Positions 1 to 19,304 of a DNA stretch of 26,071 bases are shown piece by piece. Position numbers and translations under genes: made by a program. Below the pieces are notes generated by a model. It was not told the DNA's origin, did not search any database, and worked only from the letters and a program-made list of their open reading frames with translations. Every line of letters starts with the position of its first letter. Position 1 is the first letter of the stretch. Source of the DNA: a virus. Lineage: Duplodnaviria; Heunggongvirae; Uroviricota; Caudoviricetes. The stretch lies in the IMG/VR virus record IMGVR_UViG_2909309443_000007; one strand, 5' to 3'.

Positions 1-267
1 TTACTCTGCAGGTGAAGTCGGCCACTCAATATCAGGTGCGGTTGATGTATCAACACGGTTCAGCAACACCCGATACTTCTTCCAGGCTTCCAGCAACGAG
101 TTTTCTTCCTCCGTTGCGATCTCCAGATCTACAGCATCCTGAAGTGGCGCAATATGCTCACTGAATTCCTGGATGTAGAACTGTGTGGTGACGGTCTTCC
201 AGCCATTCGGCTCCTGCTGTATCGAAGCATACCAGGCTATTTCAATATCGCTATGCTGCGGCAGCAT
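1..267 (-). CDS. Tail fibre assembly protein C-terminal-domain ORF (88 aa)
   Basis: C-terminal half (…[47 protein letters not shown]) matches the recalled lambda Tfa C-terminus. The N-terminus is unrelated. AAGGGG Shine-Dalgarno before the ATG and an in-frame stop just upstream. Confidence 0.6.
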
Positions 268-12336: not shown

Positions 12337-14177
<1,841 letters not shown>

Positions 14178-14424: not shown

Positions 14425-14501
14425 TGGCGCGTTGTACTGGATTCGAACCAGTGACCGATTGCTTAGAAGGCAATTGCTCTGTCCGGCTGAGCTAACAACG
14501 C
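14425..14501 (-). tRNA. tRNA-Arg (anticodon UCU)
   Basis: Hand-folded cloverleaf: acceptor GCGTTGT/ACAACGC, anticodon loop CTTCTAA, T-arm GGTTCGAATCC, discriminator G plus CCA. Confidence 0.85.
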
Positions 14502-14514
14502 ATAATGCAGATAA

Positions 14515-14591
14515 TGGATTGCCATCGGGGACCCGAGCCCCACACAGCCAGTTTCGAAAGCTGGCACTCTCTGTCGATGAGCTAATGGCGG
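14515..14591 (-). tRNA. Degenerate tRNA-like sequence (Arg-like anticodon UCG), possibly a pseudogene
   Basis: D-arm and overall length are tRNA-like, but the acceptor stem has two terminal mismatches, the anticodon stem has a C-A mismatch, and the T-loop is CTCGGGT rather than TTCRAAT. Confidence 0.4.
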
Positions 14592-14598
14592 TATGTGA

Positions 14599-14674
14599 TG
14601 GTGGCCCTTGCTGGATTTGAACCAGCGACCTGGCGATTATGAGTCGCTCGCTCTCACCACTGAGCTAAAGGGCC
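14599..14674 (-). tRNA. tRNA-Ile2-like (anticodon CAU; Met not excluded)
   Basis: Hand-folded cloverleaf: acceptor GGCCCTT/AAGGGCC, anticodon loop CTCATAA, T-arm GGTTCAAATCC, CCA end. Closely resembles recalled E. coli ileX. Confidence 0.8.
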
Positions 14675-14723: not shown

Positions 14724-15773
14724 TCAAACGATTAAATCCTGAACTTCCCTGACTGTCTGTTCAAAACGTCCTGTCTCCAGCTCAACACCAATCGCACAAC
14801 GCCCCAGTGCCATCGCCGCTTTTACCGTTGAACCTGAACCCATAAAAAAATCTGCAACCAGGTCTCCCGGACGACTGCTCGCGTTGATTATCTGCTGCAG
14901 CATTTCTGCCGGTTTTTCGCACGGATGTTTTCCTGGATAGTACTGCACCGGTTTATGCGTCCAGACATCGGTGTACGGAACCTGCGCCGTCACACCGAAA
15001 TACCGCCGCAAATTTTTATATTCACTCAGCAGTTCCGTGTACTGCCGGTTCAGCTCACTGTATGTGCTGACCAGCTGGTGGTGTGGCTTTTCCAGTTCCC
15101 CGCGCTGATGTTTTTCTGCCGCAACACGCGCAAACAACGCCTGCAATTTGTTGTAATCACCCTCGTTCGGTAACTGCCACTGACTGGTACCAAACCAGTG
15201 CGAAGCCATGTTTTTCTTTCCGGTGGCTTCCGCTATCTGTTTTGACGTTATTCCCAGTGATTTACGCGCATCACGAAAGTAAGAAATCAGCGGGGCCATG
15301 ACGTGCTGTTTTAGCTCGCGCCCCTGTGCCACATAGCCATCATCTTTCGGGCGATACGGTCCCTGATAATGTTCTGCAAACAGAATGCGCTCTGTTGCCG
15401 GAAAATACGCCCGCAGACTTTCCTTATTGCACCCGTTCCAGCGTCCGGACGGCTTCGCCCAGATAATGTGGTTCAGCACATTAAAGCGCTCACGCATCAT
15501 GATTTCGGTGTCAGATGCCAGGCGATGACCACAGAACAGGTAAAGACTTCCGGTAGGCTTCAGTACCCGCCAGAACTGCGCCAGACACTGGTCCAGCCAT
15601 TTCAGGTAATCATCGTCGCCCTCCCACTGGTTATCCCAGCCCTCGGGCTTCACTTTAAAGTATGGCGGGTCTGTGACTATCAGATCGACAGAATTTTCCG
15701 GTAAGGTCTGGATAAACTCCAGGCAATCAGCGTTGATTAACTCACAACTGGATATTTTTACAGTATTAATCAT
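14724..15773 (-). CDS. DNA amino-methyltransferase (N6-adenine or N4-cytosine), orphan
   Basis: DPPY motif (…LIVTDPPYF) near the N-terminus and an FxGSGST AdoMet-binding motif near the C-terminus. No restriction endonuclease partner nearby. Confidence 0.8.
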   Translation of the reverse strand: MINTVKISSCELINADCLEFIQTLPENSVDLIVTDPPYFKVKPEGWDNQWEGDDDYLKWLDQCLAQFWRVLKPTGSLYLFCGHRLASDTEIMMRERFNVLNHIIWAKPSGRWNGCNKESLRAYFPATERILFAEHYQGPYRPKDDGYVAQGRELKQHVMAPLISYFRDARKSLGITSKQIAEATGKKNMASHWFGTSQWQLPNEGDYNKLQALFARVAAEKHQRGELEKPHHQLVSTYSELNRQYTELLSEYKNLRRYFGVTAQVPYTDVWTHKPVQYYPGKHPCEKPAEMLQQIINASSRPGDLVADFFMGSGSTVKAAMALGRCAIGVELETGRFEQTVREVQDLIV

Positions 15774-18765: not shown

Positions 18766-18921
18766 TTACTCCTCAGGTTCGTAAGCTGTGAAGACAGCGA
18801 CCTCCTTCTGGCCGGTTCGGATTCGTACCTCGCAGAGGTCTTTCCTCGTTACCAGTGCCGTCACTATGACGGTTAAACAGATGACGATCAGGGCGATTAA
18901 CATCGCCTTTTGCTGCTTCAT
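18766..18921 (-). CDS. hok: Hok/Gef-family type I toxin (51 aa), HokD-like
   Basis: MKQQKAMLIALIVICLTVIVTALVTRKDLCEVRIRTGQKEVAVFTAYEPEE is near-identical to recalled HokD. The longer upstream frame is consistent with an overlapping mok; an antisense Sok RNA is expected upstream but was not mapped. Confidence 0.8.
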   Translation of the reverse strand: MKQQKAMLIALIVICLTVIVTALVTRKDLCEVRIRTGQKEVAVFTAYEPEE

Positions 18922-19304
18922 AGCCTGCTTCTCCTTGCCTTTCGGCACGTAAGAGGCTAACCTAGATTTGCCGTTCATAGATTGAGCCTCAGATTAATGT
19001 TAAACGTCTTGCAGGACGCGTAACGTTAACTGGGGCTTTTCTCTATCTGCCTTTTGGTGGCATGCCTGAGACAGATAACCTCAAGCACCCGCAGTAATTT
19101 TACATAAAGGTTATGGTTCCTTTCAATAACTCAACAATTTCCCATCTAAATACTACTCATATAGTCATATAGGCTGGCGATAATTTAAAGATAAGACTCT
19201 CTCTTTTTCTCCACCACATAATGCATTACCAACGCAAAAGTTACCATGGTAATTATATCTTAACGAAAAATACCCCGCGAACATATTCTACTCAACAAAA
19301 AATT

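Follow-up and report, generated by a model that had tools for sequence, protein, structure and literature searches.

A probable argN pseudogene between two intact tRNA genes of a lambdoid prophage

The DNA analyzed here, which we refer to throughout as the window, is the 26,071-nucleotide stretch of IMG/VR record IMGVR_UViG_2909309443_000007. It is a lambdoid prophage in which the order along the minus strand is methyltransferase gene, tRNA cluster, terminator-like hairpin and DUF3927 gene. The prophage of E. coli 504838 (L003) is otherwise 99.9% identical, and relative to it the window has two deletion junctions (~13884-13887 and ~12339-12340), and missing from it are the holin/endolysin/terminase block (L003 12837-17668) and the block running from the S49 protease to the major capsid protein (L003 19216-22640). 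Because lysis, terminase and capsid genes have been lost, the window prophage is defective; the lesion in the damaged tRNA gene described below predates the gene loss, since an identical allele is found in the 504838 prophage, which is apparently complete. Elsewhere in the window, two Rfam matches exceeded their gathering scores, one to the IS009 sRNA (41-244, minus strand, 129 bits) and one to the sok antitoxin RNA of a hok/sok (hokD) type I toxin-antitoxin system (18916-19090, minus strand, 109 bits). The features of the cluster and its immediate surroundings, in the order in which they lie on the minus strand, are:

14724 to 15773, minus strand: DNA methyltransferase gene (349-aa ORF), immediately upstream of the cluster and used below as a rate benchmark
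14599 to 14674, minus strand: intact ileZ-type tRNA (CAT; tRNA-Ile2(CAU)), called by ARAGORN, Rfam 72.5 bits
14592 to 14598, minus strand: spacer 1 (TCACATA), between ileZ and the middle element, read from the sequence
14515 to 14591, minus strand: degenerate argN, a probable tRNA-Arg(UCG) pseudogene, from Rfam, ARAGORN and comparison with intact argN
14502 to 14514, minus strand: spacer 2 (TTATCTGCATTAT), between the middle element and argO, read from the sequence
14425 to 14501, minus strand: intact argO-type tRNA-Arg(UCU), called by ARAGORN, Rfam 70.1 bits
14392 to 14411, minus strand: terminator-like hairpin with T-run just downstream of argO, from a consensus scan only

The scores of the two outer tRNAs agree with the first-pass annotation, which had described the flanking tRNA-Ile(CAU) and tRNA-Arg(UCU) as well formed. 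The window ileZ is identical to the ileZ of Stx2a phage F403, and in the 100% identical locus of E. coli 504838 its counterpart is annotated as tRNA-Ile by RefSeq and the adjacent gene as a DNA-methyltransferase. Spacer 2 is likewise identical to the Stx2a-phage spacer. The window argO differs from its Stx2a-phage counterpart by one base, having A37 (window 14465, minus strand, compared with L001:3222-3298) instead of G37; A37 is common to most clusters, with G37 present in F403 and phi345, and G37 is not the usual base where a tRNA decodes codons beginning with A. In the terminator-like hairpin 6 pairs of the 8-bp stem are G-C, and TTTTC comes directly after it.

Between these two genes, the minus strand from 14591 to 14515 holds a 77-nt tRNA-shaped sequence, CCGCCAUUAGCUCAUCGACAGAGAGUGCCAGCUUUCGAAACUGGCUGUGUGGGGCUCGGGUCCCCGAUGGCAAUCCA, whose position and tRNA size had been proposed from the letters alone and were borne out by Rfam and by ARAGORN at a 95% threshold. 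The structural defects that had been flagged in it are all present: the end of the acceptor stem has two mismatches (C1·A72 and C2·A71), the anticodon stem has a C-A mismatch (C31·A39), and the T-loop reads CTCGGGT, with C54 and G58 next to a retained U55 and C56. To these we add the D-loop, ATCGACAGA, which is without G18G19 and has A18 and C19 in their place. In all, three stem pairs are broken and four conserved nucleotides are replaced; the element has neither a seven-pair acceptor stem with a paired 1:72 nor the complete elbow set of G18, G19, T54, U55, C56 and A58. Other parts of the molecule are undamaged in the window allele, namely the 7-nt anticodon loop TTTCGAA (with U33, UCG and A37), the 3' end TCCA with its encoded CCA, the D stem and the T stem.

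A permissive Rfam search spanning 14480-14620 (141 nt) aligned 14591..14518 to the tRNA model (RF00005) end to end, flagged non-standard pairs at 1:72, 2:71 and 31:39, and scored 23.7 bits (E=0.0037), short of the gathering score of 29; tRNA was the only family that Rfam found for the element. In a default run on the cluster, ARAGORN called only the flanking tRNAs at 14599-14674 (CAT) and 14425-14501 (TCT) and passed over the middle element, for which PGAP also annotates nothing. With the threshold lowered to 95% it drew a cloverleaf tRNA-Arg(tcg) at 14591..14515, and spurious overlapping calls arose only at thresholds of 70-80%. We also considered other boundaries and the complementary strand; with both strands searched, neither ARAGORN nor Rfam found a canonical tRNA beyond the two neighbors, or in particular a high-scoring canonical cloverleaf with different boundaries, which is the result that the first-pass annotation had named as telling against it. 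A stable alternative fold was rejected as well, the minimum free energy (-25.5 kcal/mol) showing no extra stability against shuffled controls (z = -0.40).

Comparison with related phage clusters, which had been suggested as a check, placed the element among known genes. In lambdoid and Shiga-toxin phages, argN is a late-region gene. The 341-nt cluster has 91-92% identity to the ileZ-argN-argO cluster found upstream of stx2 in Stx2a phage F403 (AP012529) and phage phi345 (PV189402), and in this alignment the element occupies the position of argN between ileZ and argO, with homologous spacers on either side. Over its full length it is identical to argN at 64 of 77 positions, and both have a UCG anticodon. 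Intact argN is a perfect cloverleaf. The 13 differing positions comprise 11 transitions, 8 changes being GC to AT, and they strike G18, G19, T54 and A58 and the pairs 31:39, 2:71 and 1:72; the remaining stem changes are swaps of G-C for G-U or the reverse. By part, the substitutions number 13 in the middle gene, none in ileZ, one in argO and none in the spacers. From the match, the shared slot and the shared anticodon, the tRNA resemblance of the element is not due to chance, and the element is the ortholog of argN in the Shiga-toxin-phage cluster, in a damaged form. The UCG anticodon had been read correctly, and it had also been taken as an anomaly, which it is not: intact argN of Stx phages normally has UCG, which reads CGA/CGG and not AGG, and the anticodon is therefore no sign of degeneration.

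We sought an outgroup for polarizing these changes by scanning genome contigs with the 17-nt 5' pattern; the matches were mostly due to chance and none was useful for that purpose. The scan did return two canonical alleles (one in Escherichia sp. and one on a MAG contig) and an incomplete copy on a contig that bears the label Bacillus hominis, and in Salmonella, Citrobacter and Phytobacter it found middle elements that are aberrant in other ways. We did not find ileZ and argN named together in the literature searched.

Two exact-pattern scans of IMG/VR gave 156 locus matches with the cluster, 17 of them in both scans, for ~139 distinct loci. Intact-type argN was represented by 25 distinct full-length alleles, 17 of which had no stem mismatch or conserved-base violation, and five intact alleles scored with Rfam ranged from 44.4 to 54.8 bits. 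The window element belongs to a degenerate family of eight haplotypes from 37 loci on prophage contigs, which have in common C1·A72, C2·A71, C31·A39, C19, C54 and G58. Standard pairs filled 99.4% of stem cells in the 25 intact-type alleles vs 82.7% in the eight degenerate alleles: three pairs are broken in all eight haplotypes, and four further polymorphisms also break pairs. The differences among haplotypes are mostly added damage: in standard tRNA numbering, U55 becomes C, A29 becomes T and G43 becomes A, the T stem has two G-to-A changes, and in six related loci CTA replaces CCA. None of the eight shows a change that repairs a lesion. All scores that Rfam reported for the relatives of the window element (20.9-26.4 bits) fell below gathering, three members going unreported in a 50-kb search limited to E<=10. 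ARAGORN at default called 7 of 36 loci, so the family sits at the threshold of that program.

Among 5426 complete E. coli genomes, 85 carry the degenerate allele family, including ETEC H10407; the whole cluster occurs in 3062 complete E. coli genomes, with up to 13 copies each. RefSeq places no tRNA over degenerate argN in any of the 40 matches listed, and locus views of E. coli 504838 and H10407 confirmed this. At the H10407 locus (NC_017633 1304817-1305066) the locus tags skip from ETEC_RS06620 (tRNA-Ile) to ETEC_RS06630 (tRNA-Arg), which may mean that a feature on degenerate argN was placed in an earlier annotation round and later dropped. The family was absent from 50,697 deposited phage records. 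We saw no stx downstream in any of the 29 degenerate-family loci with at least 1.5 kb of downstream sequence, whereas 18 of 76 intact-type loci have it.

The variation within the family is concentrated in the middle gene. ileZ, both spacers and argO are invariant in 37/37 degenerate-family loci, and across all eight haplotypes the middle gene has nine variable sites. When the 24 degenerate-family loci that have the methyltransferase gene in full length are compared, the middle gene has 7 segregating sites out of 77, and the leader, spacers and flanking tRNAs together have 2 out of 177 (Fisher p=0.004). The neighboring methyltransferase gene segregates at 22 of its 142 four-fold degenerate sites, and the rate in the middle gene was not different (p=0.21), a rough benchmark confounded by mosaic recombination between methyltransferase and cluster; the within-cluster comparison is independent of it. 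That recombination is indicated by discordant identities, as loci whose methyltransferase is 92% identical to that of the window have a pseudogene one base different, and loci whose methyltransferase is 99.4% identical have one that differs at four bases. For the same reason we set aside the synonymous sites of the methyltransferase as a neutral clock. With the four-fold benchmark so qualified, purifying selection on the middle gene is relaxed in comparison with its functional neighbors, and its disabling changes (three broken pairs and four conserved-base losses) have no equal in the 17 clean intact alleles, which have none.

We conclude that the window element is very probably a decaying argN pseudogene in a lambdoid prophage, an ordinary one and no new kind of RNA. 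Homology to argN, the lesions, the sub-threshold scores, the continued damaging variation and the invariance of the neighbors are all observed directly. Judging by these sequences, aminoacylation and decoding have probably been lost, and most likely no elongator-tRNA role is left. One prophage lineage would have lost selection on argN, after which point mutations, mostly GC-to-AT transitions, would have piled up; they left the acceptor stem unpaired at its end (C1·A72, C2·A71), the last anticodon-stem pair broken (C31·A39) and the tRNA without its elbow-forming bases (G18, G19, T54 and A58). Since it lies between two tRNAs under strong selection, the pseudogene is probably still co-transcribed with ileZ and argO, and it would then be released as a processing by-product. 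Several findings count against decay. The cloverleaf is largely retained, as the ARAGORN call at 95% shows, and in the window allele the D and T stems, the anticodon loop and the CCA end show no damage. The pseudogene is also old, being found beside methyltransferase genes differing by 7.6%, yet in the loci seen it was never cleanly deleted. Against simple decay there are also the spacers, whose ~21 nt have no substitutions vs 13/77 in the pseudogene (p ~0.02 by rough arithmetic); the unchanged spacers could plausibly be due to gene conversion from co-resident intact clusters, with ileZ and argO serving as the invariant flanks, or alternatively to constraint on processing sites.

The first-pass annotation had left the choice between a decaying pseudogene and an unusual functional tRNA, and the scores, the lost bases and pairs and the continuing damage favor the former. 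That the element is an unusual tRNA-Arg(UCG) still able to function despite its C·A mismatches and atypical elbow is unlikely in our estimation, although the same intact loop, stems and CCA end speak for it, some sister alleles are called by ARAGORN at default, the window allele itself is called at a slightly relaxed threshold, and the family has persisted and spread to the 85 complete E. coli genomes. C·A is moreover the mildest kind of mismatch, and all three stem mismatches of the window element are C·A. Against function, G18, G19, T54 and A58 are lost here and kept in 17/17 clean intact alleles, and every member of the family reported by Rfam is below the gathering score. A C1·A72 end is what keeps the bacterial initiator tRNA off EF-Tu, and the window element has this feature. 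Sister alleles, furthermore, lose U55, CCA and further pairs without compensation, and IMG/VR holds no allele with a compensated 5' end (TTGCCAT...). Retention of argN as a non-translational tRNA-like RNA, either as a structured spacer that lets RNase P/RNase E process ileZ and argO correctly or as a by-product acting as sponge or decoy, seems improbable to us. It would fit the probable co-transcription with two conserved tRNAs, the invariant spacers and the lack of a clean deletion in the loci seen, where the sole deletion class fuses argN to argO and destroys both; the variation rate, on the other hand, is indistinguishable from that of four-fold degenerate sites and far above that of the flanks, the fold is no better than that of shuffled sequence, Rfam matches the tRNA family only, and no conserved single-stranded motif stands out among the eight haplotypes. 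We give still less credence to the more specific proposal that decayed argN is released from the cluster transcript as a stable tRNA-like fragment and has been kept for long because of a second role, such as a processing scaffold for its neighbors or a decoy or sponge for a host factor that targets tRNAs. If it were true, the middle slot, including the Stx2e-type elements described below, would be a site of phage non-translational tRNA mimics.

It is very doubtful, finally, that the element is a recombinant of argN with another, self-matching tRNA, the mismatches marking a chimeric junction. Chimeric argN/argO genes do exist in the cluster (five loci), as do intermediates, L013 combining the CTCGGGT loop with an intact acceptor stem and L044 having one acceptor mismatch. 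The differences from argN, against this, are scattered single-base transitions along the whole gene and not one block, and lesions like those of the T-loop and D-loop would be out of place in a donor tRNA of any kind. We looked for a compensated lineage or chimeric donor by scanning for a 5' strand that matches the mutated 3' acceptor strand; the search for such a 5' end, TTGCCATTAGCTCATCG, gave only eight non-tRNA chance matches in IMG/VR, and no tRNA in IMG/VR combined a TTGCCAT 5' acceptor strand with a CCAGT anticodon-stem strand.

Decay of argN is accordingly the reading we retain, and argN would be the dispensable phage tRNA of the three, one that decays or is replaced in several independent ways, with ileZ and argO showing essentially no variation in the degenerate family or in most of the sampled clusters. 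The argN/argO fusion allele (L006, L014, L033, L046 and L107 in IMG/VR) joins a 5' argN half at the anticodon loop to a 3' argO half; one gene's worth of sequence is deleted, the acceptor stem is unpaired, and ARAGORN does not call it. Otherwise intact argN genes with an altered anticodon region also occur in IMG/VR, with UCG changed to UCU in L010 and A37 changed to G in L018, and L121 has a UUG anticodon together with a 1-nt T-arm deletion. The argN of L013 has the CTCGGGT T-loop, an intact acceptor stem and 46.5 bits, and may represent an intermediate or recombinant state; at the same IMG/VR locus ileZ is partly degenerate (L013:1881-1949, 36 bits vs the usual 72.5). In the Stx2e prophage of E. 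coli ETEC1703 (L204:330-410) the middle slot holds a PGAP 'tRNA-OTHER' with an anticodon loop of 12-13 nt and an Rfam score of 26.4 bits. Middle elements with such an oversized loop and perfect acceptor, D and T arms were seen in other lambdoid prophages as well (L205-L207, L153, L174, L145, L148 and L041, besides L204), along with decayed versions that have truncated or poly-G T-loops; in relatives from Salmonella diarizonae/arizonae, Citrobacter youngae and Phytobacter the anticodon loop is 6 nt long or unusual in some other way. For annotation, the consequence is a gap, an argN pseudogene family being unannotated in ~1.6% of complete E. coli genomes, and cluster haplotypes could mark lineages of the lambdoid late region. 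Beyond annotation the importance is little.

Three known systems bear comparison with the window element. The bacterial initiator tRNA-fMet has a C1·A72 mismatch in common with it, but the window element also has a 2:71 mismatch, an Arg anticodon and a broken elbow and is without the three consecutive G-C pairs of the anticodon stem, so that the resemblance is superficial. The argN of Stx2a_F403 and phi345 shares its slot, spacers, UCG anticodon and first 17 nt, while the window element has lost G18/G19, T54/A58, two pairs of the acceptor stem and one of the anticodon stem, scores 23.7 bits in Rfam where argN scores 54.8, and has no stx downstream, unlike the argN cluster of Stx-converting phages, which lies upstream of stx. 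Further parallels are the pseudo or unassigned tRNAs of Stx phages: a 'tRNA-pseudo' has been reported in the tRNA cluster of stx2i phages (PMC13641118), only two recognized tRNAs are given for the stx region of Stx2e phages (PMC7366253), and ETEC1703 has its 'tRNA-OTHER'. In these, as in the window, the middle member is unrecognized and the Ile tRNA and the last Arg tRNA are intact. The Stx2e-type element has perfect acceptor, D and T arms with a 12-13-nt anticodon loop, whereas the window element has a 7-nt loop with damaged stems and elbow, and the two are different alleles. The degenerate argN family is a further, apparently unannotated example of the known variation among Stx-region tRNAs, real but ordinary.
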